DNA of 64,000 nucleotides from a virus (lineage: Duplodnaviria; Heunggongvirae; Uroviricota; Caudoviricetes), in IMG/VR virus record IMGVR_UViG_3300025389_000018, one strand, 5' to 3'. The notes below the pieces were generated by a model that was not told the origin of the DNA, ran no database searches, and was given only the letters and a program-made list of their open reading frames with translations. The translations under genes and the position numbers were made by a program. Below, one piece after another: positions 1,049 to 32,181 of the stretch (the first letter of the stretch is position 1; the number at the start of each line of letters is the position of its first letter).

Positions 1049-1528
1049 TTGAATTTAGATGGAGTACTTAGTTCGGAACAAGGAGAACCAATCCGAGCAG
1101 GAGTGCAACTTTACTACGCCCTAAATAATGGTCATAGAGTCGCTCTTATGACTAGCCGTAATCAAGCGGATGCTGAGCATTGGTTAGCTTCTCATGGCAT
1201 TGTCGGTTATGACGACCTCATTGATTCTTCTTTTCATCTAGAGGGAGAAAACCTAAAGAAGCGTCAATTTACTCTCTCACGTTCACGGGCGCCAATCGAA
1301 CTCTATGTAGACTCCGACCCCCACATTTGTGCATGGGTATTTGAAGAACAACGAGTCCCAATTCTGATGTTTGGAAGTCCTGTTTACTCCAAAATTGAAA
1401 ATCGTCCTAGTGCACCTAGAAGTGTTCGTAAATGGAGCGAGATTGAAGAGTCTGTAACTAGAGTCAACCTAGCAAAGGTACGTGAGTACACCAAGACTGC
1501 CCCAGAATTGGGAGAGTGGAGTGACTAA
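1049..1528 (+). CDS. Hypothetical protein (TTG start; weak HAD-like N-terminal LDGVL with the nucleophile Asp missing)
   Basis: A 159-aa ORF with a non-ATG start. It is tightly packed between neighbouring genes. Confidence 0.35.
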   Translation: MNLDGVLSSEQGEPIRAGVQLYYALNNGHRVALMTSRNQADAEHWLASHGIVGYDDLIDSSFHLEGENLKKRQFTLSRSRAPIELYVDSDPHICAWVFEEQRVPILMFGSPVYSKIENRPSAPRSVRKWSEIEESVTRVNLAKVREYTKTAPELGEWSD

Positions 1529-1580
1529 ACTAATCTTCTCAGGGGCCGAGGTAGGCTCTAATCGCACTCTTTTAGAAGGA

Positions 1581-3026
1581 ATGAAAGTTGATACGATGGG
1601 ACTCAACTTTTATGCGTTGAAGAAGAGAGGTTTGCCTAAGACCAAAATCTGGCTTATCTCAGAGCATTTCACTGAGGACACTCAGGTAGTAATCGAGTCT
1701 GGAGTACAGCAGGCAGAACGAGATGGATTGTCTAAAGAAGAACTGATTTCTTTAGCAGCAGATTACCAAGAGTTTTTGGTCAATAATGCGGACAGAGCTG
1801 CAGCTTTTCTAGAGTTTGATTCCCAAGTATTAGGCTTAAAATGGGTGGAAGAACAACGCCCCTTTTTCAGTAACGACCCAAAATTATGGGTAGTGTGGCA
1901 TGAGGAATACGGCTTACCAGCCCTTAAAGCCCTCTCAGAAGCCTACGAGAACGTCGCCATACCCAACGATGAGATTGAGTCTGTAACAAGCCTCTCAGCC
2001 GTTACAAGGATACACCAGAGGACATACGGCACCCTTTTTCATGCACTTGGGTGTGCCAAGCCAGACAACCTCAGACAGATACCATTTGCAACAGCCAGCA
2101 CATTGTCATGGTTATCACCCATGCGTAGAGGTGAAACGATTGTGTGGGATGGGCAAAAGATAGTCCGTTACCCCAAGAAGATGAAAGACCAAGCCAGACC
2201 TCGGTACAAGGCAATTGTAGAGAAAGCTGGACTGGACTATTTGGCGTTTAAAGAAGATAGTACCCTCGAAGCGACTAGAGTAGCGGTCTGGTCATACAAG
2301 CAAATGGAGTCATCAATGGATAAAAAGAAGCCCGATTTACACCTCATTGAGGGTGGTAAAGACGACAAGTTATCTGATAACAGCACTGAATTGATGACAG
2401 GTTTAGGAGGATTTGACTTCCTCGATTCTGATAACAAGGGGGTAGAGACACGGAAAAAATCTGCACCTGAAGTGGTGCAAAGAGCCCCAGAAGATATCCA
2501 AAATCTCCCTGTTTTCGGGTTCAGGATGAAGACCATAGTTGACCAAGATGAGAATGGCAAGGATGTCCTGATGGATGTTCCAGTCGTTCACACTCAGCAA
2601 TCTTCTCTACGACAGTGCGATACATGCTTTGTTGCAGCAAACTGTCCTGCCTTCAAACCTCAAAATACCTGCGCCTTCAACCTTCCAATCGAAGTAAAAA
2701 CTAAAGACCAACTTAAGGCTTTGATGGTCTCGATGATTGAAATGCAGGGTCAAAGAGTCGCTTTTATGCGTTTTGCTGAAGAAATGAACGGTGGATACGC
2801 TGACCCAAATGTGTCTCAAGAAGTTGACCGCCTCATCAAAATGGTTAAAGAAGTTAACGACATGAACTCCGATAAAGAGTTCATTCAGATTACAGCTCAA
2901 CGTCAATCTGCTGGTGGAGTTCTGTCTGCCATCTTTGGGGACAAGGCTCAGGCTCTTCGTGAACTGCCAGATGCCCTGAAGGAAGATACAGTCACAAAAA
3001 TTATCCAAGATTCTATAGAAGAGTAG
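1581..3026 (+). CDS. Hypothetical protein with Cys cluster CDTCx5Cx8C (start ambiguous: 1482 or RBS-preceded ATG at 1581)
   Basis: Long ORF with aggaATG at 1581. The antisense ORFs inside it (2237-3008) are judged spurious. Confidence 0.6.
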   Translation: MKVDTMGLNFYALKKRGLPKTKIWLISEHFTEDTQVVIESGVQQAERDGLSKEELISLAADYQEFLVNNADRAAAFLEFDSQVLGLKWVEEQRPFFSNDPKLWVVWHEEYGLPALKALSEAYENVAIPNDEIESVTSLSAVTRIHQRTYGTLFHALGCAKPDNLRQIPFATASTLSWLSPMRRGETIVWDGQKIVRYPKKMKDQARPRYKAIVEKAGLDYLAFKEDSTLEATRVAVWSYKQMESSMDKKKPDLHLIEGGKDDKLSDNSTELMTGLGGFDFLDSDNKGVETRKKSAPEVVQRAPEDIQNLPVFGFRMKTIVDQDENGKDVLMDVPVVHTQQSSLRQCDTCFVAANCPAFKPQNTCAFNLPIEVKTKDQLKALMVSMIEMQGQRVAFMRFAEEMNGGYADPNVSQEVDRLIKMVKEVNDMNSDKEFIQITAQRQSAGGVLSAIFGDKAQALRELPDALKEDTVTKIIQDSIEE

Positions 3027-3187
3027 TTATCTGATAACAGCGGTTCTTAATGCCTGAAACAGGTGAGACACGCAAATGAGCTGGTTAGAGTTTTAACTGT
3101 TAGCAAGTGCATGGTAGGTTCTATACCTACATAATAGTCCTCCCCTATTAAGGGGTATTTTAACTTTTAGAGAAATGGTGGTCATAA

Positions 3188-5206
3188 ATGGGCTTGTTCT
3201 CCTTTGAACTAGCAAAAGATTTTGTAGATGGTTACGGCACAAAGAAGGCACCATTTGGGTATCGAGATGCTGCTGGAAATTCGGTAGGAGAGATTACCTT
3301 CTTACGTACCTATTCTCGCATAAAGCCAGATGGTACGAAAGAAACATGGGTAGATGTCTGCGAGCGTGTCATTAACGGCATGTACTCTTTGCAGAAAGAC
3401 CATGCCAAACTCAACCGACTTCCTTGGTCAGATGCCAAGGCAGCCGCTTCTGCTAAAGAAGCCTTTGACCGTCTTTTCAACTTAAAGTGGACTCCCCCAG
3501 GACGCGGTCTTTGGGTTATGGGTACTCCACTCGTCAATGAACAGCGAAACTCGGCAGCCTTGCAAAACTGTGCTTTTGTTTCAACAGGTTCTATGACCAA
3601 AGTTGACCCTGCCAAACCTTTTGCCTTTCTGATGGAAGCGTCAATGCTAGGTGTAGGTGTCGGCTTTGACGATAAAGGCGCTGATAAAGACTTCACAATT
3701 TACGAACCACAACAAGGAGAAATTTATGTCATTCCAGACACCCGCGAAGGATGGGTCGAGTCATTTGCCGCCATCCTCAATAGCTACCTTAAGCCAGATA
3801 CGAAGAGCCCAGTCTTTGATTATAGCCAAATCCGCCCAGAAGGAGAGCCCATCAAAACCTTCGGTGGAACAGCAGCAGGTCCGCAACCTCTAATTAAACT
3901 CCATAACGATATTCGCTCCATCTTTGATGGTAGGGCTGGTCAAAAACTTACTCGCACAAATATCGCTGACATCGGCAACCTCATTGGTGTCTGTGTTGTC
4001 TCTGGAAATGTACGCCGTAGTGCTGAACTTCTTATGGGTCGTATTGACGACCAAGACTTCCTAAACCTTAAGAACTATGACCTCAATCCACAGCGTGCAG
4101 GTCACGGTTGGCTATCCAATAACTCGGTTGAAGTGACTGTAGGCACTGATTTGTCCCCCATTCTTGAAGGTATTTCCCGTAATGGTGAGCCTGGGGTTAT
4201 TTGGATGGATGTATCCCGTAAGTATGGTCGCTTGGCTGACCCAGAGAACAACAAGGACTGGCGTATCGCTGGATACAATCCTTGTGCTGAACAGTCTCTT
4301 GAATCATACGAGTGTTGTACTCTGGTTGAAACTTACCTCAACCGCCATGAGAACTTGGAAGACTTCAAAAGAACATTGAAATTCGCTTACCTTTACGCTA
4401 AGACTGTTACTTTGCTTCCTACGCATTGGGAAGATACTAATGCCATTATGATTAGAAATAGACGCATTGGAACTTCTGTTTCGGGAGTAGCAAATTTTGC
4501 AGATAATAAAGGACTTCCTGCGCTACGACAATGGATGGATGATGGATACAAAGTTATTCAAAATTACGATAAAGGATACTCAGAATGGTTAGGAGTACGG
4601 GAGTCCATAAAAACCACAACGATTAAGCCTTCAGGAACAGTCTCTATCCTTGCTGGAGAATCTCCTGGGGTTCATTGGTCAGTAGGAGGTAGGTACTTCC
4701 TCCGAGCAATTCGTTTCCGTAATGAAGACCCTATGTTACCTTTGTTTAAGATGGCACAGTACACAGTTGAACCAGCAGCAGAAGACCCAGTCAATACTTC
4801 TGTTGTACTATTTCCAGTCAAGAGTGATGCAACTCGTTCTGAACAAGAAGTGTCTATTTATGAAAAAATTGCTCTTGCTGCAACTGCTCAAAGATATTGG
4901 AGCGACAACTCTGTGTCTGTTACGGTTTCTTTTGACCCAGATACTGAATCCGATACAATTGGCAAGGTACTACATATGTACGATGGTCAATTAAAGACTG
5001 TTTCATTCTTACCTATGATGAAAGGTGGTGCATATAAGCACATGCCTTACACTCAAATCACCGAAGAAGAGTATGAGGCTGAAAGCATGAAGTTGTTCCC
5101 TATTGACTTTGCTGGTGTCTATGCAGGTATGGCAGCGGACGCCGTTGGCGAAAATTACTGCACGACGGACGCATGTGAAGTTAAACTTATTAAGGACAAC
5201 CAGTGA
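3188..5206 (+). CDS. Ribonucleotide reductase, class II (adenosylcobalamin-dependent, monomeric RTPR-like)
   Basis: Contains FLRTYSR and the active-site NPCAEQSLESYECC (Cys-Glu), plus a C-terminal Cys pair (CTTDAC). There is no partner beta-subunit gene and no glycyl-radical motif. Confidence 0.6.
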   Translation: MGLFSFELAKDFVDGYGTKKAPFGYRDAAGNSVGEITFLRTYSRIKPDGTKETWVDVCERVINGMYSLQKDHAKLNRLPWSDAKAAASAKEAFDRLFNLKWTPPGRGLWVMGTPLVNEQRNSAALQNCAFVSTGSMTKVDPAKPFAFLMEASMLGVGVGFDDKGADKDFTIYEPQQGEIYVIPDTREGWVESFAAILNSYLKPDTKSPVFDYSQIRPEGEPIKTFGGTAAGPQPLIKLHNDIRSIFDGRAGQKLTRTNIADIGNLIGVCVVSGNVRRSAELLMGRIDDQDFLNLKNYDLNPQRAGHGWLSNNSVEVTVGTDLSPILEGISRNGEPGVIWMDVSRKYGRLADPENNKDWRIAGYNPCAEQSLESYECCTLVETYLNRHENLEDFKRTLKFAYLYAKTVTLLPTHWEDTNAIMIRNRRIGTSVSGVANFADNKGLPALRQWMDDGYKVIQNYDKGYSEWLGVRESIKTTTIKPSGTVSILAGESPGVHWSVGGRYFLRAIRFRNEDPMLPLFKMAQYTVEPAAEDPVNTSVVLFPVKSDATRSEQEVSIYEKIALAATAQRYWSDNSVSVTVSFDPDTESDTIGKVLHMYDGQLKTVSFLPMMKGGAYKHMPYTQITEEEYEAESMKLFPIDFAGVYAGMAADAVGENYCTTDACEVKLIKDNQ

Positions 5207-8300: not shown

Positions 8301-8578
8301 CTAAGCCACTTCCCTTTCTATAACTATTCCATTGGACACTACCGATATAGGGCTTTCATACCCTGTTCCATCGTACATCTTGCCACCCCATACCCCGTAT
8401 ATCCCTCTCTGAGTCTTGGCATAGTTGCTACACGCTTTTAGTAAGTGGCATTTCCTACATATACTTTTCGCTAATTTGATTTCTTCTTTACGCCTAAAGT
8501 TATTCTTTGGGAAGAATACTTCGGGGTCTGTCTGAGCGCATAGTTGAGTTCCGTCATACGGGCTGTCACCACTCATAG
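8301..8578 (-). CDS. whiB: WhiB-like Fe-S transcription factor
   Basis: Four Cys (C..CRKC..CHLLKAC) plus the signature GVWGG turn. The start is refined to an internal ATG with AAGGAGAG RBS (ORF-track start 8654). Confidence 0.7.
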
Positions 8579-8835
8579 TCTCTTGCCCTCTCCTTCCGTT
8601 CTTCTGACTTAGACTCCACTTCATCAAGTGAAACCACCTTAAAGATAAAGTCATAGTTCTCTTTGTTATTCATTTTTTCTAACTTTTTTGCTTCTGACTT
8701 TGCTTTCCTTTTAGTCTTAAATAGCCCATACCAGCAGAGACAATCGGGGTCTGAGAGAGCCGTTGTTATCTCTATACACCACTTGAATTTGCGCTTATAC
8801 ATTTGTATCCACCTCTTTGCTATTAGGTACTGCAT
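8566..8835 (-). CDS. Hypothetical basic protein
   Basis: Lies in the leftward operon with short overlaps to its neighbours. Confidence 0.45.
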   Translation of the reverse strand: MQYLIAKRWIQMYKRKFKWCIEITTALSDPDCLCWYGLFKTKRKAKSEAKKLEKMNNKENYDFIFKVVSLDEVESKSEERKERARDYEW

Positions 8836-9315: not shown

Positions 9316-9555
9316 TTAATTTTCCCATAGTAAGTTTTCTAGTATTAAATCTCTTTCTCTTTCTATAAGCCAATCTTCTGCCGCTTTTTGTGCTTCTGCC
9401 TTTGTTCTGTATCTGTAATCATCTCCGTCTATGAAGTTGTCACTCTCGAAGTATTGCCATGCCCAGTTGCCTTCGCCATTTTTGTACACCCATACATCTT
9501 CTTTAGGAGAGGCATAGACACTTAGTCCATTTAGTTCTTTCTTATGAAACTTCAA
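9316..9555 (-). CDS. Hypothetical protein ending ...ENLLWEN (LW-tail family member)
   Basis: Its C-terminal LLWEN resembles the tails of the 21-23 kb cluster. Confidence 0.5.
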   Translation of the reverse strand: MKFHKKELNGLSVYASPKEDVWVYKNGEGNWAWQYFESDNFIDGDDYRYRTKAEAQKAAEDWLIERERDLILENLLWEN

Positions 9556-10177
9556 CTACTTCTCCTTCCCATAGACTTTTCTCCAACTCGTTTAATTCCT
9601 TTTCTTCTTTTGCGTTTTCTTCTGTGCAACTTCGGCATACATCAGGTGTCTCTGTACCTTCACATTCCACACTCTCATAGCACTCGTCACACCAATGGTG
9701 GTCTCCTTCAAGTTCTAGTCGCTTCTCACAAATAGCACTACTAAGTGAGCCATCTATGGCAGAAGTTTCCTTTCCATTTTTGTAAGTGTTTTCTCCCCAA
9801 TAGTCACTTCCACTCTCATAGTATTGGTAAAAGAGTTTCAATTTAGGATACTTAGTTGCGAGTGCTTCAATGACCTGTACAACAGGGCTCCAAGCGGTAT
9901 CGAAAGTGTAAATAAGCAAACCTTCTTCTAGCCAACTACTTTTTCTATCAACATCACATACATCCCACTTACTTCCCCAGTTTTCTATGCTCCACGAATA
10001 CCACTCACCATCTTTTTCAACTGGTCTAGGGATTATTCTTTGGCAGGAGAAAGGAGAGGCAGAGTGTTGTTCTGTTTCCTCACTTTGAGTGAGTTCTACA
10101 TACTTCATCAACTTAGTAAGTTCTCTAGGAGAACCTTCTATCTTTAAGAAGTTGTTACACCAATTTGGCATTTCCAT
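9542..10177 (-). CDS. Hypothetical protein with N-terminal MPNWCNNFL motif and C-terminal Cys cluster
   Basis: A 211-aa ORF with HHWCDECYESVECEGTETPDVCRSC. Confidence 0.55.
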   Translation of the reverse strand: MEMPNWCNNFLKIEGSPRELTKLMKYVELTQSEETEQHSASPFSCQRIIPRPVEKDGEWYSWSIENWGSKWDVCDVDRKSSWLEEGLLIYTFDTAWSPVVQVIEALATKYPKLKLFYQYYESGSDYWGENTYKNGKETSAIDGSLSSAICEKRLELEGDHHWCDECYESVECEGTETPDVCRSCTEENAKEEKELNELEKSLWEGEVVEVS

Positions 10178-10589
10178 CTCCTATAACTATTCCAGTTTTA
10201 AGAACCTCTTGAAGTCGTGGCGTTATTTCATTATCGAAATAGTCTCTGCCGTACTTCCATATACGGTCAGGAATTTGGTCTATAACTTCTTTAGTAATAA
10301 ATCCATTTACTAAAGAGGCTACTTTTGCACCTGCGTGTTTATCTCCTTTTAAGAAATAAACTCCACCAATTCTTGATAGACGTAATGCTTCTGTACTGCT
10401 ACCCCTCATGTCATAATCAAGTTCTTTAACTATGAATTTTCTAGTATCTAGTGGTGCGTGTTTCTGCCAATCCCATCCATGAGGGGCAGTGATAGTCACT
10501 TGTTCTAAATCAGGGATTGCTACACGAAAGAAGATAGTCTCCCACCCAGTTATTTCAACCTTTGTTTTTTCCAATAGATTACTGCTCAT
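10155..10589 (-). CDS. Hypothetical protein
   Basis: Operon context. Confidence 0.5.
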   Translation of the reverse strand: MSSNLLEKTKVEITGWETIFFRVAIPDLEQVTITAPHGWDWQKHAPLDTRKFIVKELDYDMRGSSTEALRLSRIGGVYFLKGDKHAGAKVASLVNGFITKEVIDQIPDRIWKYGRDYFDNEITPRLQEVLKTGIVIGDGNAKLV

Positions 10590-11169
10590 TTGTCTCTCTC
10601 TTTTCTAGGTAACTTATTTTCTTATAGACTTTTGATTTTCCTTCAGACGTTTTATAGCCGTACCGAACGAAACGTGACTCTAAGGCAGAAGTAGTTACTC
10701 CTAATGATTTTGCTAACGAATAGCAACTAACTCCTTTTTGCACCTGCTCCCACGCTAACTTAGTGAATAGTTCTGCTTCTTCTCGGTAATTGGTACTTGT
10801 GCTTCTTACTAACTGCGCTTTGTTACGAAGTTCTATTAGTTGTGCTAAAACTTCAGGTTCTACTTCTAACATCTTCCTGTCATAGATAGGAATAGAAGGC
10901 ACTTGCGGTACTCGGTACTTACCCAACACCTTCTCTCTAATTACAGGGTCATTAGCGATTGGCTCATTCACCAACTGTCGGATTCTTTCGCGTGTAACAC
11001 CTATCACATCAGCCATAGATTGAAGTGTCCAGCCTTCATCGCGTAGTGCCTTTAAGTAAGCCTTCTTCTCTTGTAAGTCTAGGTTCTGAATTACACCTAG
11101 TATTCCTTCAGGAAGTTTCATATCAGACTTCTTTTTCTTTGTTCCTACTTGCACTTTATGTATTGTCAT
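10579..11169 (-). CDS. DNA-binding protein with two HTH motifs (sigma-70 region-4-like)
   Basis: GWTLQSMADVIGVTRERIRQL resembles a region-4 HTH. A second HTH is YSLAKSLGVTTSALESRF. Confidence 0.5.
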   Translation of the reverse strand: MTIHKVQVGTKKKKSDMKLPEGILGVIQNLDLQEKKAYLKALRDEGWTLQSMADVIGVTRERIRQLVNEPIANDPVIREKVLGKYRVPQVPSIPIYDRKMLEVEPEVLAQLIELRNKAQLVRSTSTNYREEAELFTKLAWEQVQKGVSCYSLAKSLGVTTSALESRFVRYGYKTSEGKSKVYKKISYLEKRETNEQ

Positions 11170-11512
11170 TATTTTTTACCTCGGTATCCCATAGTTGTTC
11201 TTCGTTGTGTTCTAGTTCCTGTTGCTTTCGTAGCCAAGTATTCCATGTACTTAGTGTCGCATTTGCTATTGCAGTTCCGATTGCAGTGCTGTTGAATACA
11301 TCGTCAATTCTAATAAGTATTTCGTCTACGATTTTGTTAGGTAAGGAATTGGGAGATGGATATTTAGCGTGTAGTTCTTTATCATCAGTCATTTCAACTG
11401 TCGTATCGAATACGTCATTTTTATCTAGTATATGCACAGCAAGAAGTTCGTCTAAGTTATCTCCATACCATATATTGAGTCTTTCAATTAACTCCTTCGC
11501 TGTGTATATCAT
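11156..11512 (-). CDS. Hypothetical protein
   Basis: Operon context. Confidence 0.45.
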   Translation of the reverse strand: MIYTAKELIERLNIWYGDNLDELLAVHILDKNDVFDTTVEMTDDKELHAKYPSPNSLPNKIVDEILIRIDDVFNSTAIGTAIANATLSTWNTWLRKQQELEHNEEQLWDTEVKNNDNT

Positions 11513-11906
11513 CTTGTGTCTCCTTATCCCATAGTTCTTCTTCTTCTACTTCGTCTGCATTTCTTTTTTTGGATTCAGATATTTCAGTTGAGATGTAGTC
11601 GCTTTCAAGTTCATTGAACGCTTCATATAAATAATCCCAACTACTGTCGTAATTGAATTTTTGCATGACTTCCTTGAACATCTCTACTGTGTAGTCTTTT
11701 TTTGTAAAGTTATGTTCGTGATAACTTTCTTCTGCTTGTAGTGCTTGAGTTTCATAATCTGTCACTACTGCTATTGCAATTACTTCATCCTCTTTATAGT
11801 GTCGAGAGAGGAATTCTGTAACTTCTTTTCGCGTGTTGATATACATTTCATCCTCTCCTTCTTTGCGGTGTAAGTCGTTCCCAAGTAAGTCGTTTCCAAG
11901 CCACAC
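11484..11906 (-). CDS. Hypothetical acidic protein
   Basis: Operon context. Confidence 0.45.
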   Translation of the reverse strand: MWLGNDLLGNDLHRKEGEDEMYINTRKEVTEFLSRHYKEDEVIAIAVVTDYETQALQAEESYHEHNFTKKDYTVEMFKEVMQKFNYDSSWDYLYEAFNELESDYISTEISESKKRNADEVEEEELWDKETQDDIHSEGVN

Positions 11907-12083
11907 GAATTTTTGGTGAACGAGATGGGATTATGTAAGAGGGTTCTTTCCCATTTGTAGTGGTATATGTGTAGTACATTGGATAGATTGAAGGTACTGC
12001 TGTTTTTGTAATGCGTGTAGAACAATGGTGTTCTGACTCTCTATTCAGTTGTACCCCACACTCACAAGTAAAGTTCATACCCA

Positions 12084-12425
12084 TTATTTTTCTCCTATCA
12101 GTTTCGCTAATGCTTGACGAGTAGGGCAATACTGTGGCTCAAACTCTCCATTCTCAGGTATTAGTTCATATCCACATCCCCTGCATGACCAAAACTTATC
12201 TACTTCATCCCATGACCTGTCATGTATCTCAAAAATCTCTTGCAATACTAGAAGTTCAGAGACATGGGTTTCTATTTGACTTACTCTTTCATGTAGTTTT
12301 GCCAATTCAGATTCGGAATGTATTTCGTTGATACTTTGCTTAAATAAATCCACCAGTTCAGAACGAGTATTCTGTATTTTTGTTTCGAGTACTTTTCGTA
12401 GTTCATCTACTTTGGCGTTGTTCAT
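12084..12425 (-). CDS. Hypothetical coiled-coil protein with C-terminal zinc ribbon (CRGCGY...YCP)
   Basis: Operon context. Confidence 0.45.
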   Translation of the reverse strand: MNNAKVDELRKVLETKIQNTRSELVDLFKQSINEIHSESELAKLHERVSQIETHVSELLVLQEIFEIHDRSWDEVDKFWSCRGCGYELIPENGEFEPQYCPTRQALAKLIGEK

Positions 12426-12456
12426 TTGATTCTCCTTTGTTTATATTAAGGTTTTG

Positions 12457-12600
12457 TTATTGTTCCCATAACTGGTTCTCAATTAGTTCTAGTTCAATTT
12501 CCATAGCGTTTACCCAGTCATGGCTTTCGACAGTGCATACTTCGCACATTCCATCTATTAGGTTACGTGTAACCTTTCCGCACATATAGCACTTAGACAT
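12457..12600 (-). CDS. Small zinc-ribbon protein (CYMCG...CEVC) ending ...ENQLWEQ (LW-tail family; not in ORF track)
   Basis: ATG at 12600 preceded by TAAGGAGCAAT. It encodes 47 aa. Confidence 0.4.
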   Translation of the reverse strand: MSKCYMCGKVTRNLIDGMCEVCTVESHDWVNAMEIELELIENQLWEQ

Positions 12601-13269: not shown

Positions 13270-13860
13270 TTATGCGTACACATCTTTTCCTTGATATGCC
13301 ATCTCAACTAATGTCTCAAACTCTGCGAGAGAGAGTGTTACTGTGGCTTGCAGTTCACGATTCATGTCGTAAGTAGTGCCTACTGTTACTCTAGCCTTAT
13401 CTCCTAATAGTTCTTTAGCAGTTATGGCTACTGTTGTTTCGGCTCTCTTTACATCATTCTCAACGGCTCTCTGTTTCGCAAGTTCTTTTTCCCTGCGCTC
13501 TTGCTCAGCACGCTGTCGTTCTAGTTCGGCTTGCTTGCTCGCTTCCCACTTAGGCTCTAAGTCAGCCCACAATGCAACTACATCTGCCAAACGTGAAGTC
13601 CAATAGACTTCTTTACCACCTTTATCAGTTGCTTTTACAAGTATTCCTACCGAACGATTACCAGCCTCAGCCTTGCGAAAGTCTGCGGGTTCCTCTGTTC
13701 TCCTTCCTGCTTCATACTCGTATTTCTCTAAGGAAACGATGGTTGCCTTCACTACATCGTTCTCCCTTGCCTTGTCAGGGTCACGACTTTCGCGTGAGGC
13801 GTAACTCCAACTAGGTACGATTGCGTAATCTTTTCCAAGTTCAACTTCTGACAGTTTCAT
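13270..13860 (-). CDS. Hypothetical protein with coiled-coil
   Basis: RBS AAGGAGAAT upstream. Confidence 0.55.
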   Translation of the reverse strand: MKLSEVELGKDYAIVPSWSYASRESRDPDKARENDVVKATIVSLEKYEYEAGRRTEEPADFRKAEAGNRSVGILVKATDKGGKEVYWTSRLADVVALWADLEPKWEASKQAELERQRAEQERREKELAKQRAVENDVKRAETTVAITAKELLGDKARVTVGTTYDMNRELQATVTLSLAEFETLVEMAYQGKDVYA

Positions 13861-13880: not shown

Positions 13881-15896
13881 TTATGAATTGGCTACTAGGT
13901 TTCGTGCGATTGCAATTCGTACAAGTTCCCGACCCAATATCGTGATGTCTTTTGCAGACTTGATTTGTGTCAGTAACTCAAACGAGTGGCGATAGTGTTC
14001 GAGATGTTGAGCAGAGATAGTTCCTTGCTCTAAGTAGGCTTGGCAAGTTAGAACGCCAGCATTACGCATTTCCGTAACTGCTTGCTCTCCTTCTTTTGAG
14101 TCCCACATTCCATCCGTAATCATAAATAGAATACGGATTGGCTTATCGGTTTCAGCGAGAACACGTTTCGCGTAGAGAATTGCTTCGTGAGGATTGGTTC
14201 CCCCGTCAGCACCAGCGTCACGAATTGAATTTCCAGCCTTATCCTCAGCACTGTAAAGAAGTGTCGTGTCATAATCGAATAAGCAGACAGTTGTTCGGGC
14301 TTCGACTTCTTCAAGTGCCTTCTTAATTGCCCACATACTTTGATATGCCATGTCTGCATTATTTCCTGCCATTGAACCCGACTTATCTAGCAAGATAACG
14401 GCTTCAATAGAAGTTACATCAGAACGACCTTCTTGCCATTCATCGAAACAAGTATCGAAATCCTCATTATTGAGATAACGATTGACATTCAAGCGACCTG
14501 TATCAACTTCTGACTCCCATGCAGGGTCAAACTTTGCGCGTAAGCGTTCGAGTTCACGACCAAACGCTTTAGAAGTTAGCACCAGTTCAGGATTAGCAGG
14601 TACTTCTCTGTGTCGGGCTTTAATTGGCGTAGTTACATTTCCGCCATTTAATCCAACATCAACACCCATCTGCTTTGCGATTTGATTTATCTCTTTAGAT
14701 AACTCGCGCAAGGCTTCATCCATAATGCCATCAAGTATTTGTGATACCTGTTGATTAGTGCCTGTTGTACCTTTATCTGTTCCTATTCCCTTTGCAGGAT
14801 TGGATGGAGAAGGTTCAAGGTCTAAGTCAATCTCTTCGTCATAGTCCCATTCCTCATCTTCCTCATCAAACGGCGATGGTGTAGTGCTGTCAGGATTTTT
14901 TACTGCGGATTTATCTTCTTTAGAAGTTTCCTCAGTTACATCTCCCTCAGTTACATCGCCATCAGTTGTATCAGTTGTATCTTCATCAGTTGCAGGAGAG
15001 AGTTCTATATCTACAACAAGAACGGGCTTTGGATTGTCCTTGCTCTTACTCCTTCCTAAGTCGCTCTCTTGCTGTGCGCGACTAACTGGTCGGACACTAC
15101 TGCTATCTACCCCTTGTGTTGGGCGAGTGCTATGACCCATAGGGTCACTAATGCGAACTATAACTGTCTGACCACCTTGACCATTACTACTGCTCTGTGT
15201 CGGTGCTAACTGCTTTATCAACTCGTCTAACTCTTTGATAAGTACCTTCGCTCTTTCCGTTGCTGTTCGTACTTCTTCAATAGAACCTACGAATATCAGT
15301 TGTCGGTATTCATCAACGATGTTATAGATTGCTTCTACATCTTGTGGTCGTTGGTAGTTATCAACTGCTAACTGTTGGATTTCAGTAGGCAGATACCTAC
15401 GACCAGTAATAAGAGGAAACGCTGTTGGTAGTGCTTCCTCGTTTTTAATGATGTAGTTAGTAACTACGGCTGTTAGCCACTTAGCAATACTTGGCAAGTA
15501 ACCGACTAACAAGGTTTCGATTCGGTTGTCCTCTAGCACGTTAAACGTATTCCATAGGTCATTCTGTTGTACCCATGCTATGAAAGGCGTACCAGTTCTA
15601 GGCGTATAGCGGAGATGTCCTAACTCATGGAAATCAAGTCCTTGCAGTTCCAAGATAGTTTCAGCAGTAATCTCGTCATGCAACTCAGCCAAGTTAAGCC
15701 ACATTTGCGTACTGCTTGACCATGCAGGAGATTCGATTAAAGGTTCATCTACTACACTTACCGAGATTTTTCGACCTGTCAAAACACTATTAGTGCGAGC
15801 GAATACACTCGCAAGTTTAGTGATGTGACTGCGCTTTAATTGCTGTAGTTCTTTTGCTTTGTCCTCTTGGCTTTGCTCTTTAATGAACGCTCTCAT
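13881..15896 (-). CDS. von Willebrand factor A domain protein (CobT-like partner of the MoxR ATPase)
   Basis: vWA MIDAS motif ILLDKSGSM near the C-terminus, with an acidic low-complexity linker (TDEDTTDTTDGDVTEGDVTEE). It sits adjacent to the AAA+ gene. Confidence 0.8.
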   Translation of the reverse strand: MRAFIKEQSQEDKAKELQQLKRSHITKLASVFARTNSVLTGRKISVSVVDEPLIESPAWSSSTQMWLNLAELHDEITAETILELQGLDFHELGHLRYTPRTGTPFIAWVQQNDLWNTFNVLEDNRIETLLVGYLPSIAKWLTAVVTNYIIKNEEALPTAFPLITGRRYLPTEIQQLAVDNYQRPQDVEAIYNIVDEYRQLIFVGSIEEVRTATERAKVLIKELDELIKQLAPTQSSSNGQGGQTVIVRISDPMGHSTRPTQGVDSSSVRPVSRAQQESDLGRSKSKDNPKPVLVVDIELSPATDEDTTDTTDGDVTEGDVTEETSKEDKSAVKNPDSTTPSPFDEEDEEWDYDEEIDLDLEPSPSNPAKGIGTDKGTTGTNQQVSQILDGIMDEALRELSKEINQIAKQMGVDVGLNGGNVTTPIKARHREVPANPELVLTSKAFGRELERLRAKFDPAWESEVDTGRLNVNRYLNNEDFDTCFDEWQEGRSDVTSIEAVILLDKSGSMAGNNADMAYQSMWAIKKALEEVEARTTVCLFDYDTTLLYSAEDKAGNSIRDAGADGGTNPHEAILYAKRVLAETDKPIRILFMITDGMWDSKEGEQAVTEMRNAGVLTCQAYLEQGTISAQHLEHYRHSFELLTQIKSAKDITILGRELVRIAIARNLVANS

Positions 15897-15909: not shown

Positions 15910-17250
15910 TTAGTTTATGTCAGAAGTAACTGGTGATTGAAACTCTTGCTCTAGTTGCAAACGGTGTGCCTCAAACAGCAGGCGAACACTTGCGCGTTCT
16001 TCATCGTTAAAGTTCATCAACGCATTTTCCAATGCAAACTCAAACCCAAGTTCGTGAGCGAGTTCTTGGAAGTTCTTTAGCCAGCGTAATGAGATAGGCG
16101 TTGTATAAGTTCCCTTGATACTGTCTGCTCTCATGTCGTTAGCAATTTTCAGAAGTGTTGGTGACTTAATGATTTTCTTTTCGATAGTTGGGTCGTACTC
16201 AAACTTCAATTTGATACCGAAACGGTCTAGGAAGGCTTCATTCAACTTATTGCTTCCTCGGTATCCGTTGTTATATGTAGCGACCACCATGAAGTCAGGA
16301 TGTGCAGGTACTACTTCGCCACCATTCTCAATGATTGAGAGAGTGCGGTTTTGTAGTAAATCTTGAAGTCGTTGCAGGATTTTGGTAGGAGCGAAATCAA
16401 CTTCATCTAGGATAACAATGTCTCCACGCTTTACTGCTTGCGTGAGAACGCCATCTATCCAAACTGGCTTGCCAGTTTCAGAGTCAATGATTGTTTTACC
16501 AATAAACTGCCCAACTTCAATTCCCATCGAACAGGAGAACACATAAACGCCTTGACCTTCTTTATGCCCGAAGTTAAGTGCGCTAGTTGTTTTTCCTGTA
16601 CCAGCATGACCTTCGATAAGTACGAATTTCTTTAGTCGCTTAGCAGTTGAGAACATCTTGTGTTCAGTAACACCGCCAGCGAAAGTACGCTCAATGTAAT
16701 CTCCTACAAGTTCTTTAGAAGGAATACGGATTACATAACGACCAATGACTTCATCATCTAATTCCTCATAGCGTGGGGCTTGCGAAACTTCGATAGTGTC
16801 GTTGATTACTAGCGGATTTTTTACTGCGGTGGCACTCTTGTCACTTCTGCCATCACTACGGTATTTCGCTAGGGATTGTGGGTCTTGCTCTATCATGTCG
16901 TGTACCTCTTTCAGTAGTTCGGTTAGTGTTCGGTTGCTTGCTTCTTTATGGCGTAAGCCGTACTGCTTTGTTAGTTTTTGGATTAAAACATTTGGGCGTT
17001 GATTCTTTTGTAAAGAATATATGTCGTTATCAGTAAGTGGTGTAGAGAGAACCTCACCGACAATAACGTGTTCATCATGGATGGCGATTACTTCATCATA
17101 ATCAGAGTCAGTCCATGCGTTAGTCTCCCCACGTCCCCCATTAGTAGTGCGAGTCCATGCGTAGTTCTTACCTTCGTGAGTTGCTAGTAGTACCTGTCGA
17201 ACGGTATCTACTGTGTCGGTCTGCGCTGTGATTAGGATTGCTTGTGACAT
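15910..17250 (-). CDS. AAA+ ATPase, MoxR/CobS-like, with ~190-aa N-terminal extension
   Basis: Walker A IEGHAGTGKTT and Walker B IVILDEVDFAP. It pairs with the vWA gene. Confidence 0.8.
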   Translation of the reverse strand: MSQAILITAQTDTVDTVRQVLLATHEGKNYAWTRTTNGGRGETNAWTDSDYDEVIAIHDEHVIVGEVLSTPLTDNDIYSLQKNQRPNVLIQKLTKQYGLRHKEASNRTLTELLKEVHDMIEQDPQSLAKYRSDGRSDKSATAVKNPLVINDTIEVSQAPRYEELDDEVIGRYVIRIPSKELVGDYIERTFAGGVTEHKMFSTAKRLKKFVLIEGHAGTGKTTSALNFGHKEGQGVYVFSCSMGIEVGQFIGKTIIDSETGKPVWIDGVLTQAVKRGDIVILDEVDFAPTKILQRLQDLLQNRTLSIIENGGEVVPAHPDFMVVATYNNGYRGSNKLNEAFLDRFGIKLKFEYDPTIEKKIIKSPTLLKIANDMRADSIKGTYTTPISLRWLKNFQELAHELGFEFALENALMNFNDEERASVRLLFEAHRLQLEQEFQSPVTSDIN

Positions 17251-19238: not shown

Positions 19239-19799
19239 CTAGGCAGTAGCCGAAATAGCGGTTCCTTTAGCGAGATTGCACTTTGCATGGGCTATTTTGA
19301 CGTTTTCTAAGGTGTCATCTCCGCCTAGAGAGAGGGGAATGACATGTTCTACGTGTGGGTAGGTCTCCCAGCCTGGGTCCTTCATGTTGTGAGGGGCAGT
19401 TAAGTCAACAGGAGTGCCACAGAGGTAGCAATCGTAGCCATCACGGTCAAATATCTGTTGTCTGGTGTAGTAAGAGCGCTTATTGCCCCTATTTCTAGCG
19501 CGGTCTCGGTTATTTGGAGGGCGTTTATGTGGGTTTTTCTTGTAATACTCGCGCTCTGTAGCCTTGTACTTAGGGTCTTTATTCTTTTCTCGCATATACG
19601 CGGCAGCGATTGCTCGGCATGGGGCACATGCCACACCGTTATTTCTACGGCAACGGTCATAGTCGCCCCTTGAAACGCCATGTTGATTACGAAGAAGTTC
19701 TTTTTTCTCAGTATTGACCTTTTTCTTCATAGCCCGTATGAGACGACGCGTGAGAATGCCTCGTTCTATAGTCTCAACTCTTTGAGAAACCTCATCCAC
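19239..19799 (-). CDS. HNH endonuclease
   Basis: YPHVEHVIPLSLGGDDTLENVKIAHAKCN HNH core, with upstream Cys pairs. Confidence 0.75.
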   Translation of the reverse strand: MDEVSQRVETIERGILTRRLIRAMKKKVNTEKKELLRNQHGVSRGDYDRCRRNNGVACAPCRAIAAAYMREKNKDPKYKATEREYYKKNPHKRPPNNRDRARNRGNKRSYYTRQQIFDRDGYDCYLCGTPVDLTAPHNMKDPGWETYPHVEHVIPLSLGGDDTLENVKIAHAKCNLAKGTAISATA

Positions 19800-20992: not shown

Positions 20993-21298
20993 ATGAGCTT
21001 ACTTCCACCTGTAGTGGCTGTACTAGATGAGAAATTTAATCTTGGAATACCTGGCTCTTATGACGAGTGGTACAAGATAACTACGGATGTACTTAATGAG
21101 CCAAACGGGTACGTAGTGTGGCACTACCCGCCAGAAGATAAAGGCATGGGGAAGCCGTACAACACCTTCACTCTCTTACCAGGAATGGTAATGAGACTTG
21201 GAATGGGGACACTCCATCGGGAGGTAGTCTTCCGCCGTGGGTTTCCACTGGGGAAAGTGGTAACTTTAGAAGAAGAAGAAACTCTTTGGAACTCATAG
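20993..21298 (+). CDS. Small hypothetical protein ending ...EEEETLWNS (LW-tail family)
   Basis: First gene of the rightward early array. Confidence 0.5.
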   Translation: MSLLPPVVAVLDEKFNLGIPGSYDEWYKITTDVLNEPNGYVVWHYPPEDKGMGKPYNTFTLLPGMVMRLGMGTLHREVVFRRGFPLGKVVTLEEEETLWNS

Positions 21299-21310
21299 AA
21301 GGGGGAATAT

Positions 21311-21697
21311 ATGAACTCAAATTACAACGCACTACAGGGGTATAACGTAGTCACCTCTAATTCTTACATTAACTCTCCGCGCACTAGAAGAGTTATAGAA
21401 GTTACGTTAGATGAAGAGTTTGAAATACCGCAATACGGATTCTTTGTCCTTCAACTTTTGGTGGAGGAAGATGCGCACTACACACTCTCGCTTGTACAAC
21501 TCGCCGTCAATGTGCCTGCAGCAACACAAAAAGGCTCTTTTAATCTTGGTGTGTTTCCTGATGCCAAAGTTCTCTCTTGCTCAAGAATTCCAAAAGGGGT
21601 AGATAAGTACACCTTTTACATATGGGAGAACGCGATTGTATGTGACGTAAGTAGGTCGTCCTATGACACCTACGAAGGGATGTTGTGGCAGCAATGA
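21311..21697 (+). CDS. Small hypothetical protein ending CDVSRSSYDTYEGMLWQQ (LW-tail family, CD[LV][TS]xS subfamily)
   Basis: RBS GAAGGGGG. Confidence 0.5.
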   Translation: MNSNYNALQGYNVVTSNSYINSPRTRRVIEVTLDEEFEIPQYGFFVLQLLVEEDAHYTLSLVQLAVNVPAATQKGSFNLGVFPDAKVLSCSRIPKGVDKYTFYIWENAIVCDVSRSSYDTYEGMLWQQ

Positions 21698-21957
21698 GCC
21701 AATATAACCAAATGACAGTAAAGCTAGACGAGCCTTTTATTGTAGGTGTCTATACATGCACATTCAAGCTTCGTTACAAGCCAGATAATAAGAAAGCTCT
21801 CATATTAACAGTTATGCCAGATAAGCGGACTAGGTTCTGCTCACCAAAAAAAGATGCCACAACATACACAGTTGAAGTTAATGGGCAGCTTGTCACATGT
21901 GATTTAACCCAATCTGCAAATGATGACATAGATGCTCCATTATGGGATGTGATGTAA
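21694..21957 (+). CDS. Small hypothetical protein ending TCDLTQSANDDIDAPLWDVM (paralog of neighbours)
   Basis: ATGA overlap with the upstream stop. The ORF-track start at 21685 is GTG. Confidence 0.5.
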   Translation: MSQYNQMTVKLDEPFIVGVYTCTFKLRYKPDNKKALILTVMPDKRTRFCSPKKDATTYTVEVNGQLVTCDLTQSANDDIDAPLWDVM

Positions 21958-22256
21958 TGGCTATCTCAACCTACCAATACTCTTCTAGCTCTAGCTATTG
22001 GATAGAAAAAGATGTTCTTTTAGACCAGGGGTTTGATTTTGCTGGAGATAATGGACTCTATGTTTTCTCCAAAACAGTCTCTAATGACGGCACCACTGGT
22101 TTGAGGCTAGAAAACCTTCGTACCAAAAAAGTGGAGCTATATTCCATAACTAGAGACTCGGAGTTCTATGTGCTCCGTATAGGGTCTCATGCAGTTAGAT
22201 GCGACCTTACAAAGTCCACCTATGACAAATCAGAGAAAATTTTGTGGGAGTCATAA
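21957..22256 (+). CDS. Small hypothetical protein ending RCDLTKSTYDKSEKILWES (paralog)
   Basis: TAATG overlap. The ORF-track start is 21942. Confidence 0.5.
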   Translation: MAISTYQYSSSSSYWIEKDVLLDQGFDFAGDNGLYVFSKTVSNDGTTGLRLENLRTKKVELYSITRDSEFYVLRIGSHAVRCDLTKSTYDKSEKILWES

Positions 22257-22258
22257 AG

Positions 22259-22432
22259 ATGTGCTATGGTATATATACAAAGGCGGGAAGCTTCGAAAAC
22301 GGAAAACCTTTGTCGTCCTTGGGCCACGACGTAAAACTTGCTGACAGAGAAGTCTCCATGGGGTTCACTAAGTTGAAGCGAAATGGGGACTTCTCTTCTC
22401 ATTACCGAGAAAAAGGAATAGGTAATGATTGA
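22259..22432 (+). CDS. Small hypothetical protein (57 aa)
   Basis: GGGAG RBS 8 nt upstream of the ATG. Confidence 0.35.
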   Translation: MCYGIYTKAGSFENGKPLSSLGHDVKLADREVSMGFTKLKRNGDFSSHYREKGIGND

Positions 22433-22688
22433 CAATCCCGCGTTAGAACGACCCAATGTAAGTCTAAACGTATTGGAGTCTGGTCAGGTAGGACCGTTGT
22501 TCCACCATGTTTTTGCCTCTACTGGAACTATTCTCACTGCCTATAGTGCAGCAGAGTTCAGAGAACAACTCATGTACGAAGGACGGAAGTTAGCAGAAGC
22601 ATTTCAGGAGTGCTCAAGGCTACTGCTTGACCTGGAGTTAGAGAGGTCAGAAGAAGACCGGTTAGATGAAAAGTTATGGGAATCATGA
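22425..22688 (+). CDS. Small hypothetical protein ending ...RLDEKLWES (LW-tail family)
   Basis: RBS AGGAATAGG. Confidence 0.5.
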   Translation: MIDNPALERPNVSLNVLESGQVGPLFHHVFASTGTILTAYSAAEFREQLMYEGRKLAEAFQECSRLLLDLELERSEEDRLDEKLWES

Positions 22689-22704
22689 ATAACGGGAGGA
22701 AATC

Positions 22705-23046
22705 ATGAGGTTATTTGATGTACTAGACATTGTCAGCGCTATCGTGAGTTACATAGGTGTTGGAGCTATAGTCTTTAAGGAAACATTCCCAAAACGAGTG
22801 GCTTACCACAAGAGTAAGTTTAGATATCTAAAATGTGAAGATTACACAGCTGAATTCATCATTGAGTCAACAGTAGTTGCAGCATTCTGGCCTTTGGTTC
22901 TACCTGCAATTGGTGTTAAAAAAGCCTGGAAGTATCTAGGAAAAGTCCCAACAAAAAAGTTTAATCAATGGGCAGATAGTATCTACAACCCAGAATCCTC
23001 ATTAACCCAAGACGAGATGAACGAAAGGCTCCTCTGGTCAAGCTAG
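22705..23046 (+). CDS. Small membrane-associated hypothetical protein ending ...NERLLWSS (LW-tail family)
   Basis: RBS GGGAGGAAA, with hydrophobic segments. Confidence 0.5.
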   Translation: MRLFDVLDIVSAIVSYIGVGAIVFKETFPKRVAYHKSKFRYLKCEDYTAEFIIESTVVAAFWPLVLPAIGVKKAWKYLGKVPTKKFNQWADSIYNPESSLTQDEMNERLLWSS

Positions 23047-29252: not shown

Positions 29253-29417
29253 ATGAAATGCGATATTTGTTCTGAGAAGTCTGAAGACTTCCTTTTTGTA
29301 GTAGAAGAGTCCGATACGTTCAGTACTCCTACTAACTTCGAGTACTGCTGTGTACTCTGTGAAGATTGTGTAGAGGAGTTTGGCGGAATCCACATGATTG
29401 ACTACTATGTCAGCTAA
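29253..29417 (+). CDS. Small zinc-ribbon protein (CDICS...CVLCEDC; not in ORF track)
   Basis: GGAGATAG RBS. It encodes 54 aa. Confidence 0.4.
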   Translation: MKCDICSEKSEDFLFVVEESDTFSTPTNFEYCCVLCEDCVEEFGGIHMIDYYVS

Positions 29418-29757
29418 TACTTGCTCTCCTGGGAGTGTTCCTAATCCCTTAAACATTTCCCCCTACTACTTGAACCCAACTATCAACAACCCTTCTGTAT
29501 GGCATACAGGAGGAGGCGGTACCCCCACAAGCCCTGTAGGGGCAGGAGGAAGGGGTGGTCTCGTAACTACTACGACTAGCACTACTCCTTACACTGGGTA
29601 CGTCTACCCAAATACACCCACTATAACTACCTCTCCCAACACACTTTACCCAGTTACTAGCCCTATAACTAACGGATTCGACGTGAACGATGCCATGCGT
29701 ATAGCCAGAGAACAGATGGAAATTATTTTGGAAGAAGAAAAGCTGTGGAACAGCTAA
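29407..29757 (+). CDS. Thr/Pro-rich small protein ending ...EEEKLWNS (LW-tail family)
   Basis: Start refined to an internal ATG. Confidence 0.45.
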   Translation: MSANTCSPGSVPNPLNISPYYLNPTINNPSVWHTGGGGTPTSPVGAGGRGGLVTTTTSTTPYTGYVYPNTPTITTSPNTLYPVTSPITNGFDVNDAMRIAREQMEIILEEEKLWNS

Positions 29758-29915
29758 CTACACCGACACAGGGGCACAACATCCCTAATTGGGCTGTTAC
29801 CTCCTCGGAAGAATGTCTCCTACACCAAGTACGTGAAGCGACGGATAAACTCCGTATCTCCATTAGGGAAGACAAGGAAGACAAGCTCCTTGAACAGGAA
29901 CTGTGGAATAGTTAA
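29745..29915 (+). CDS. Possible small protein ending ...EQELWNS (LW-tail family; GTG start overlapping the previous LWNS codons)
   Basis: The open frame has no ATG. The GTG is preceded by GGAAGAAGAAAAG. Confidence 0.3.
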   Translation: MEQLTTPTQGHNIPNWAVTSSEECLLHQVREATDKLRISIREDKEDKLLEQELWNS

Positions 29916-31605: not shown

Positions 31606-32181
31606 TTGACCACAATCGCAGCAGTGCAAGGCGACGGATGGGTCGTAATGGGTGCAGACACCCAGGGGACCTATAACGAATACCGCAAAATTTTCATGAA
31701 AGATGACAAGGTCGTAGAAAATAACGGCATTCTAATTGCTGGTTGCGGTATTGGACGAGGCATGAATCTCCTACAGCGTGGCTGGAAAGCCCCTAAGCCT
31801 CGCACCAAGTTGAGTCCAGAGAAGTTAGATAATTGGATGGTCAACACCTTCCTGCCCCAGATGAGAGACGTATTCATCAAGGGCGGTTATGACATGAAGG
31901 ATGACGGAGACTATGCCAAGTACGAGAACGTCTTCCTAGTCGCTGTTCAAGGCCATGTATACATAATTGATGAGGACTACTCTATTGACAGGGACGCCAG
32001 AAACTATGTAACGTCTGGCAGTGGAGGAGACTTCGCACAAGGTTCCCTTTATAACCATGGACCTAAGCTATTTACTGACCTTGAGTTTGCGAAAGAAGCA
32101 ATGAAGATGGCTGTAGATGCAGCTAAAGAGTTTGACAGCAACTCAGGTGGAGAAACAAGAATTTACGTACAACTAGCCTAA
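31606..32181 (+). CDS. HslV-like Ntn-hydrolase peptidase (proteasome beta-subunit fold), TTG start
   Basis: N-terminal (M)[21 protein letters not shown] aligns to E. coli HslV [32 protein letters not shown] motif corresponds to HslV GSGGPYA. AGGAGG RBS. Confidence 0.7.
   Translation: [191 protein letters not shown]

Follow-up and report, generated by a model that had tools for sequence, protein, structure and literature searches.

An acidic Leu-Trp motif near the C-terminus of small early phage proteins is specific to one actinophage clade and clusters around a MoxR/vWA gene pair

Introduction

In eukaryotic viruses, short peptides shared by many proteins are a familiar means of bringing them to one hub, and a few phages are known to use such peptides as well (the clamp-binding tails of bacteriophage T4 are one case). 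They are rarely recognised in uncultured phages, most early genes of which have no recognisable function. Here we analyse a 64,000-nucleotide stretch of DNA from a tailed phage (IMG/VR record IMGVR_UViG_3300025389_000018; the whole stretch is referred to as the window). In the window, small early open reading frames (ORFs) carry the consensus [DE]-x-x-L-W-[DENQS] close to the C-terminus (the LW tail). We show that the LW tail is under strong purifying selection, is specific to one phage clade, and is clustered around the genes for a MoxR-type AAA+ ATPase and a partner protein with an HExxH motif and a vWA domain.

Several described systems resemble the LW tail in layout. The C-terminal tails of T4 gp43, gp33, and gp55, which bind gp45, and the β-clamp-binding peptides (consensus QL[SD]LF; QLPLWG in mycobacterial ImuB) likewise give unrelated proteins a common acidic/hydrophobic end that docks onto one ring-shaped hub. 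The N-domains of AAA+ ATPases commonly bind short C-terminal peptides, as in ClpX with the XB peptide of SspB and in the MIT domain of Vps4 with the MIM peptides of ESCRT-III. These helical peptides, with an acidic start and spaced hydrophobic residues, tether their bearers to an AAA+ N-domain and are our model for the LW tail. The SSB tip (DDDIPF) and the tails of T7 gp2.5 and gp4 are likewise hub-binding C-terminal peptides in which an acidic run precedes a hydrophobic or aromatic end, and motifs of Trp and acidic residues are read by kinesin light chain. In McdB, an invariant C-terminal Trp motif (R(V/I)WPD, or acidic residues with W) docks the adaptor onto carboxysomes (PMC11321042). Like the LW tail, it is a near-C-terminal hydrophobic-Trp-acidic peptide that is the sole invariant feature of divergent proteins, and in McdB it binds one partner assembly.

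Judged by sequence, the LW tail is without the defining features of the gp45 tails, the SspB XB peptide, MIM, the SSB tip, and the McdB motifs. Compared with MIM1, (D/E)xxLxxRLxxL(K/R), the LW tails match D/E-x-x-L only and have no RLxxL(K/R), and they have no similarity to XB (LRVVK). SSB and the T7 proteins need a terminal aromatic residue and a free carboxylate, whereas 1-19 residues follow the motif in LW tails, and the tag is carried by many proteins and not by the hub; the Pro-Phe terminus of SSB is found in none of the window tails. McdB is a single family of autotrophic bacteria with WPD, whereas the LW tail occurs on many phage families with LW[DEN], and there are no microcompartment genes in the window.

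Known MoxR/vWA pairs include CbbQ/CbbO, NorQ/NorD, RavA/ViaA, the MoxR-vWA pair of ATV, and those of jumbo phages. To our knowledge, no peptide tag of the above kind is known for MoxR/AAA_5 ATPases, and we know of no MoxR/vWA pair with a client family marked by a common peptide. The window encodes such a pair. In jumbo phages, a MoxR ATPase and a metallopeptidase-vWA protein have been described as a chaperone/co-chaperone pair, and the window partner appears to have the HExxH-vWA architecture described there (PMC7824862). Compared with the known pairs, the N-terminal domain of the window MoxR is clade-specific.

Results and discussion

Thirteen small early ORFs carry the LW tail

A six-frame scan of the window finds the LW motif in 13 small early ORFs on two divergent arms (Table 1; 15-mer tails such as EQMEIILEEEKLWNS), usually 2-3 residues before the stop codon. 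Four of them had been named in a preliminary description of this DNA, with the endings ENLLWEN, ENQLWEQ, EEEKLWNS, and EQELWNS (ORFs 9316, 12457, 29407, and 29745; ORFs are named by their first coordinate), and all four are present as described. Six further carriers lie at 20993-23046 on the plus strand. The scan adds three ORFs beyond the earlier list, 9542, 11156, and 11484, in which 8, 10, and 14 residues follow LW, respectively, so that the earlier count of at least ten tailed proteins on both early arms rises to 13. The residue three positions before the Leu is D or E in all 13.

All-against-all BLAST and profile alignment sort the 13 carriers into about eight independent families, including DUF1281_C, hydrophobic-N-terminal, and Pro/Thr/Gly-rich proteins. 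Kinship is found within one paralogous trio (21311, 21694, and 21957) and two paralogous pairs (11156 and 11484; 29407 and 29745), and a module of zinc ribbon plus tail is common to 12457 and the C-terminus of 9542. The carriers had been described as otherwise unrelated in sequence, which is right between the families and wrong for the trio, the two pairs, and the zinc-ribbon module.

Several of the products recur in public data: a protein identical to the product of 9316 is found on a 99,450-bp contig, and the product of 11484 is 99% identical to a public protein (P0037). Orthologues of 12457 in two relatives (L098 and L103) end in TLWKE and ELWKQ, respectively.

A profile of the 11156-11906 LW family also matches another protein (P0090, 2e-11), the C-terminus of which resembles that of the 196-aa protein encoded at 13270-13860 on the minus strand, itself without an LW tail. 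The 13270-13860 protein and the 11156-11906 family appear to share an N-terminal 'MKxSEL' domain, which would place tagged and untagged versions in one operon.

Table 1 Coordinates of the LW-tail ORFs and of the other main genes in the window. All matches are to Pfam models.
Feature	Coordinates	Strand	Length	C-terminus	Motif codons	Remarks
LW-tail ORF	9316..9555	-	79 aa	...LILENLLWEN	9322-9339	AAGGAG-type Shine-Dalgarno sequence
LW-tail ORF	9542..10177	-	211 aa	...EKSLWEGEVVEVS	9566-9583	DUF1281_C (PF18406, 2e-11) and zinc ribbons
LW-tail ORF	11156..11512	-	118 aa	...EEQLWDTEVKNNDNT	11186-11203
LW-tail ORF	11484..11906	-	140 aa	...EEELWDKETQDDIHSEGVN	11526-11543	120 aa from ATG at 11846; paralogue of 11156-11512
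LW-tail ORF	12457..12600	-	47 aa	...IENQLWEQ	12463-12480	CxxC...CxxC zinc ribbon; strong Shine-Dalgarno sequence
LW-tail ORF	20993..21298	+	101 aa	...EEEETLWNS	21275-21292	annotated gene in public contigs
LW-tail ORF	21311..21697	+	128 aa	...YEGMLWQQ		first of three paralogues
LW-tail ORF	21694..21957	+	87 aa	...IDAPLWDVM		paralogue of 21311 and 21957 ORFs
LW-tail ORF	21957..22256	+	99 aa	...SEKILWES		paralogue of 21311 and 21694 ORFs
LW-tail ORF	22425..22688	+	87 aa	...LDEKLWES		identical protein on 17 public contigs
LW-tail ORF	22705..23046	+	113 aa	...NERLLWSS		hydrophobic N-terminal segments
LW-tail ORF	29407..29757	+	116 aa	...EEEKLWNS	29734-29751	119 aa from TTG at 29398; Pro/Thr/Gly-rich; 9 public contigs
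LW-tail ORF	29745..29915	+	56 aa	...LEQELWNS	29892-29909	putative; GTG start
HExxH-vWA partner	13881..15896	-	671 aa			directly downstream of MoxR; alternative candidate receptor
MoxR-type AAA+ ATPase	15910..17250	-				AAA_5 (PF07728, 7.6e-25); clade-specific basic N-terminal domain of ~175 aa; candidate receptor
Proteasome-beta/HslV-like Ntn peptidase	31606..32181	+	191 aa			PF00227, 25.9 bits (gathering threshold 22.4)

The LW tail is not a chance or nucleotide-level feature

ORFs ending in LW[DENQS]x-stop occur nine times in the window; 200 locally shuffled versions average 0.115 such ORFs, with no more than two in any of them, and the reversed sequence has none. A greedy gene set contains 11 copies of the motif [DE]xxLW[..] in its ~3,200 tail residues and a single copy in its ~17,000 internal residues. 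A chance origin of the LW tails, which the preliminary description would have accepted had shuffled or reversed sequence given them at the same frequency, is thus excluded.

The Leu of the motif is written with six codons (CTA, TTA, CTT, TTG, CTC, and CTG), and the codons around the motif vary. The spacing to the stop codon and to the start of the following gene is also variable, ranging from an overlap of 13 nt to tens of bases. Together, these features indicate that the conservation resides in the protein and not in DNA or RNA. The peptide could alternatively be the by-product of a nucleic-acid signal, such as the ribosome-binding site or start of the next gene, a terminator, or a recoding site, and one GTG start does lie inside the CTG-TGG codons (29745). 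In relatives, however, the motif is found up to 19 codons before the stop. With the synonymous codon variation, this rules out a nucleotide-level signal, the probability of which we regard as negligible.

The overlap at 29745 bears on translation of that ORF. As noted before, its GTG start overlaps the LWNS codons of the preceding gene, and its frame contains no ATG. Its frame is -1 with respect to 29407-29757, with which it shares 13 nt. In blastp, its product emerges as a paralogue of the C-terminal half of the 29407-29757 protein (34% identity over 59 residues, 2e-5), and it keeps an LW tail of its own. Two of four identical public contigs have the ORF annotated as a separate 56-aa gene. 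Because these four copies are identical, they carry no dN/dS information on selection. Translational coupling and recoding had both been put forward for this ORF. The paralogy and the separate gene calls favour a coupled GTG start, which would be the simpler and ordinary reading. On direct reading, the overlap (GAA GAA GAA AAG CTG TGG AAC AGC TAA) contains no X_XXY_YYZ slippery heptamer, and frameshifting between the two ORFs is unsupported by the sequence.

The LW tail is conserved in relatives and specific to one clade

The orthologous arms of relatives contain 4-7 LW-tail ORFs each. When eight sequences of two paralogous families, 10-30% identical, are aligned, the L, W, and D columns are the only invariant ones, and in an alignment of 55 sequences only L and W are. 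A profile search retrieves 95 proteins, and 88 of the 89 best end in LW[DEK], 3-22 residues from the C-terminus. The variants among these matches include LWD, LWEA, LWKE, LWDKE, and LWDSPATKITGEQNDNA, and some homologues have conserved extensions beyond LW (for example, SPATKITGEQNDNA). The pattern applied to relatives demanded D/E at position 1, so the relatives are no independent test of the acidic position.

The widespread DUF1281 family shows how the tail is distributed beyond the clade. An exhaustive HMMER search with the product of 9542-10177 retrieves 8,999 family members. The tail is present in 17 of the 21 closest cluster representatives, which are clade orthologues, and in 0 of 137 more distant ones, indicating that it is a clade-specific add-on. 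Orthologues of 37-40% identity retain the motif at a position shifted by seven residues. Short linear motifs typically turn over in this way, being retained while their position shifts.

Scanning IMG/VR for the DNA pattern of EExLWNS-TAA yields 25 matches (seven in clade members, three probably chance ORF ends, and the rest not at ORF ends), from which no second clade emerges. Word-indexed homologue searches for the products of 9316-9555 and 9542-10177 return only the phage's own population. In our literature searches, no description of an LW-tail motif was found.

In the AlphaFold2 (AF2) model of the best-sampled family (homologue P0046; mean predicted local distance difference test (pLDDT) score, 67), QLWD belongs to a short helix that follows a break and ends the chain. 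With a local pLDDT of ~50 at QLWD, the model gives no confident packing of the tail against the domain, which fits an exposed peptide. The model has no fold match in the PDB. The AF2 model of the 11156-11512 product is poor (pLDDT, 48), and its tail is predicted to be helical.

These data also bear on the possibility that the tail has no shared partner, being either a relic of common descent, multiplied by duplication and the shuffling of modules, or an intramolecular cap that stabilises the last helix of each protein. Several carriers are indeed paralogous, 12457 and 9542 have their zinc-ribbon-tail module in common, and the tail is predicted to be helical. A relic would decay, yet L and W are the sole invariant positions amid divergence, and the motif is kept despite the seven-residue shift between orthologues. 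It is found on about eight unrelated N-terminal folds, including a putative membrane protein with hydrophobic segments and a low-complexity protein. As for a cap, distant DUF1281 relatives fold without the tail, and the AF2 model gives no confident packing of it. Descent or capping is therefore a very unlikely explanation. The earlier preference for a functional tag over simple tandem duplication is borne out by the six Leu codons, the invariant L and W, the 88 of 89 homologues, and the clade-only DUF1281 tail, and it is highly probable that the LW tail is a functional tag shared by these proteins.

LW tails cluster around MoxR/vWA genes

The MoxR gene and the adjoining gene of its partner sit where the two arms diverge. 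To measure the association of LW tails with these genes, we counted the tails in viral loci fetched by different queries. The 45 loci fetched only with MoxR queries comprise 551 kb and contain 101 LW-tail ORFs, or 1.8 per 10 kb; each of the 28 such loci of at least 10 kb has at least one. Loci fetched with the proteasome-like gene of the window served as controls, and contain one LW-tail ORF in 266 kb in the close clade and one in 584 kb in a second phage clade (0.02-0.04 per 10 kb). When the MoxR N-domain alone is used to search IMG/VR, 27 loci are retrieved, down to 41% identity; all those of at least 10 kb contain LW-tail ORFs, with 4-7 each where the identity of the N-domain is at least 46%. 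In the loci of relatives, the tail-bearing ORFs are downstream of MoxR/vWA on the same strand, and one is on the divergent arm.

The N-domain itself is strongly conserved in the clade, with 72% mean column identity and eight invariant Arg/Lys residues. The same MoxR/HExxH-vWA pair is present in Gordonia phage Chidiebere and Brevibacterium phage Cantare, the MoxR proteins of which align with the window MoxR only from residue 176 and are thus without the N-terminal domain. HExxH and the metal-ion-dependent adhesion site (MIDAS) are conserved in Chidiebere gp73 and Cantare gp56, both annotated as hypothetical, and the ATPases of these phages are annotated as 'porphyrin biosynthesis'. In the 25-41 kb examined of Chidiebere and Cantare, there is no LW-tail family; the sole pattern match is one Cantare ORF, taken as chance. 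These two phages, in which the pair is present without the tail family over the 25-41 kb examined, rule out that any MoxR/vWA pair implies LW tails. No LW-tail ORF is found in the whole 113-kb genome of Streptomyces phage BRock either, so that a tail family in this nearest cultured relative by portal is likewise ruled out.

The vWA domain of the partner is C-terminal (Pfam VWA_2 and VWA; PF13519, 27.6 bits; cut-off, 27), and its MIDAS is intact (DKSGS at residue 504, GGTNP, and ITDGMWD). At the N-terminus, HELGH at residue 90 is followed by LEDNR, and HELGH...LEDxR is conserved in five homologues. The N-terminal 260 residues match no Pfam model. An acidic/aromatic linker (..DEEDEEWDYDEE..) is also present.

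The proteasome-like peptidase is not locally linked to the LW tail

The loci that served as controls also bear on a second reading of the tail, as a degron for timed destruction by a protease other than the MoxR partner, either the proteasome-beta/HslV-like peptidase of the phage or host Clp, Lon, or FtsH. A C-terminal tag common to unrelated proteins is the classic layout of a degron, a peptidase of the proteasome family is encoded in the same early region, and in one relative the peptidase gene is 1.3 kb from an LW gene. The window peptidase begins with fM-TTIAAV, with the N-terminal Thr after the initiator Met, and has D17 and the GAD and DSNSGG motifs; its matches to PDB sequences are weak. 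A survey of proteasome homologues states that it found no Actinobacteria-specific phages encoding the AAH family described there (PMC8665760).

Homologues of the peptidase are found at 68 IMG/VR loci from two phage clades (60-87% and 37-44% identity), and these loci contain only two LW-tail ORFs in 850 kb. The peptidase is therefore neither sufficient for the tag nor locally linked to it, and local linkage is ruled out. The tails themselves also differ from degrons. The motif is not bound to the free C-terminus, being followed by 1-19 residues and by conserved extensions, and the context is strongly acidic with polar terminal residues. Known bacterial C-terminal degrons such as ssrA (...LAA) are unlike this context: their C-terminus is non-polar, whereas LW tails end in polar or charged residues (EN, EQ, NS, ES, SS, and KE). 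The HbYX motif of proteasome docking differs as well, in that the LW tails have Trp rather than Tyr and at least two residues follow the Trp in 124 of 125 tails. A degron is accordingly an improbable reading. Upstream of the peptidase gene, a 213-aa ORF (30911-31552) contains a CHELAEM motif.

A host hub as a possible receptor

A shared tag could also dock onto a hub of the host, such as the β sliding clamp, RNA polymerase with region 4 of sigma-A, or another that reads acidic-hydrophobic peptides, so that early proteins would be localised to one site or compete there. Small, diverse, and early carriers are as expected of host-takeover factors, and confinement of the motif to one clade and one habitat would fit a receptor specific to the host lineage. 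Region 4 of sigma-A is bound by WhiB7 through EPW, an acidic tryptophan motif. With respect to the clamp, a polar residue at position 1, Leu at 4, an aromatic residue at 5, and a C-terminal place resemble clamp-binding peptides, and L-W at these two positions is invariant in the window ORFs and the family alignments.

Other features of the tail stand against the clamp. Where the clamp motif has Gln, all 13 window ORFs have D or E and never Q, and position 2 is polar rather than hydrophobic. The 13 carriers outnumber the 3-5 proteins with clamp tails, and they are small and of unassigned function, whereas the latter are replication and transcription factors. No clamp gene is seen in the window. 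The second clade, of ~40-kb phages from the same kind of sample, shows no LW tails within 10 kb on either side of the fetching gene, apart from the single ORF counted above, which may speak against a host hub in general. We consider a host hub rather unlikely. If the receptor were one, the tag would point to a central vulnerability of uncultured or unidentified hosts.

The MoxR/vWA machine as a candidate receptor

The explanation that we tentatively favour is that the LW tail is a docking handle onto the MoxR/vWA machine. The tail, with the consensus [DE]-x-x-L-W-[DEN]-x, would be a selected short linear motif ending an acidic, probably helical C-terminal segment, grafted onto about eight unrelated small early protein families in one clade of ~100-kb freshwater actinophages. 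The acidic residue and Leu-Trp, at positions i, i+3, and i+4, would form one face of the helix and be inserted into one shared receptor, and many different early proteins may thereby be drawn to the same machine. This machine would consist of the co-transcribed MoxR AAA+ ATPase and its HExxH-vWA partner, which the clustering makes a possible receptor of the tag. Two sites are candidates: the clade-specific basic N-domain of MoxR, and the MIDAS metal site of the vWA domain, proposed because MIDAS sites coordinate an acidic ligand residue. Sites of both kinds are suited to acidic peptide ligands. Once bound, the tagged proteins might be remodelled, assembled, or clipped, the last by the HExxH domain.

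A bolder version, on which we place less weight, is a private tag-and-hub system, in which the MoxR N-domain would be the dedicated reader and the ATPase with the HExxH-vWA protein would assemble, relocate, or destroy the early set on schedule, possibly feeding the proteasome-like peptidase. If true, this would amount to a viral version of MIT-MIM or adaptor-tethering degron systems and to the first defined client-recognition code of a MoxR ATPase.

Several observations weigh against MoxR/vWA as the receptor. The co-occurrence of tail and MoxR is phylogenetically confounded, and no independent gain or loss is seen; since the N-domain and the tag both mark a single clade, their association is without independent replication. 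The most divergent N-domain loci have just one LW ORF each. In the window, eight tagged ORFs are on the other arm, 4-13 kb from MoxR, and proximity may reflect only shared status as early genes. A profile of the N-domain has no relative among PDB sequences. In addition, MoxR/HExxH-vWA pairs are widespread in phages without LW tails (PMC7824862), indicating that the pair has a function independent of the tag.

The six-residue motif offers a handle on the function of 4-13 otherwise uncharacterised genes in each genome of an abundant freshwater actinophage group. Little is known of what MoxR/vWA pairs act on in viruses, and the proteins with LW tails are candidate clients here. For annotation, the motif supports the 47-aa and 56-aa ORFs as likely genes.

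The phage, its relatives, and other features of the window

The window is part of a ~99-kb actinophage that encodes WhiB, and identical proteins are found on the 99,450-bp public contig. The gene for the WhiB-family Fe-S regulator (8301-8654, minus strand; PF02467, 7.2e-14; GVWGG turn) indicates an actinobacterial host. The portal has 52% identity to its counterpart in Streptomyces phage BRock. All relatives are from metagenomes or viromes, with a G+C content of 0.38-0.45, and the contig identifiers and the UFOVP name suggest that they are of freshwater origin. No close relative is found among GenBank phages by megablast and tblastn, and no prophage relative among 185,579 species genomes.

The other recognisable genes of the window are those for an integrase, a terminase with a LAGLIDADG insert, an SPP1-type portal, a tail sheath, and a collagen-repeat fibre. 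In the large terminase (41177-43513, plus strand; 778 aa), a LAGLIDADG_3 domain lies between the ATPase and nuclease domains, which suggests an intein or an inserted homing endonuclease. An HNH endonuclease gene (19239-19799, minus strand) is alone in the ~3-kb gap between the divergent arms and has the same place in near-identical public contigs (L109-L111). Directly after the plus-arm LW cluster is the gene for an SPFH/Band 7 protein (23126-24034, plus strand; PF01145, 3e-26), followed by three small ORFs.

The plus arm also has a second recurrent C-terminal module, CxxC ... [YF]PC[PDN]T followed by a short helix. It is found in five ORFs (25216-25545, 25658-25942, 26736-27104, 27480-27722, and 28737-29147, all on the plus strand), which are weakly paralogous (blastp, 1e-4 to 6e-4), and the ORF at 4349-4639 of one relative (L139) ends in ...VPYPCPTIQAIEKELG.

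Finally, two plus-strand regions, 1482-5206 and 51210-54413, cover a queuine tRNA-ribosyltransferase-like gene (phrog_887, 8e-58), which adjoins the gene for a class II (B12-dependent) ribonucleotide reductase, and a 1,067-aa protein of the window with eight collagen-repeat stretches.

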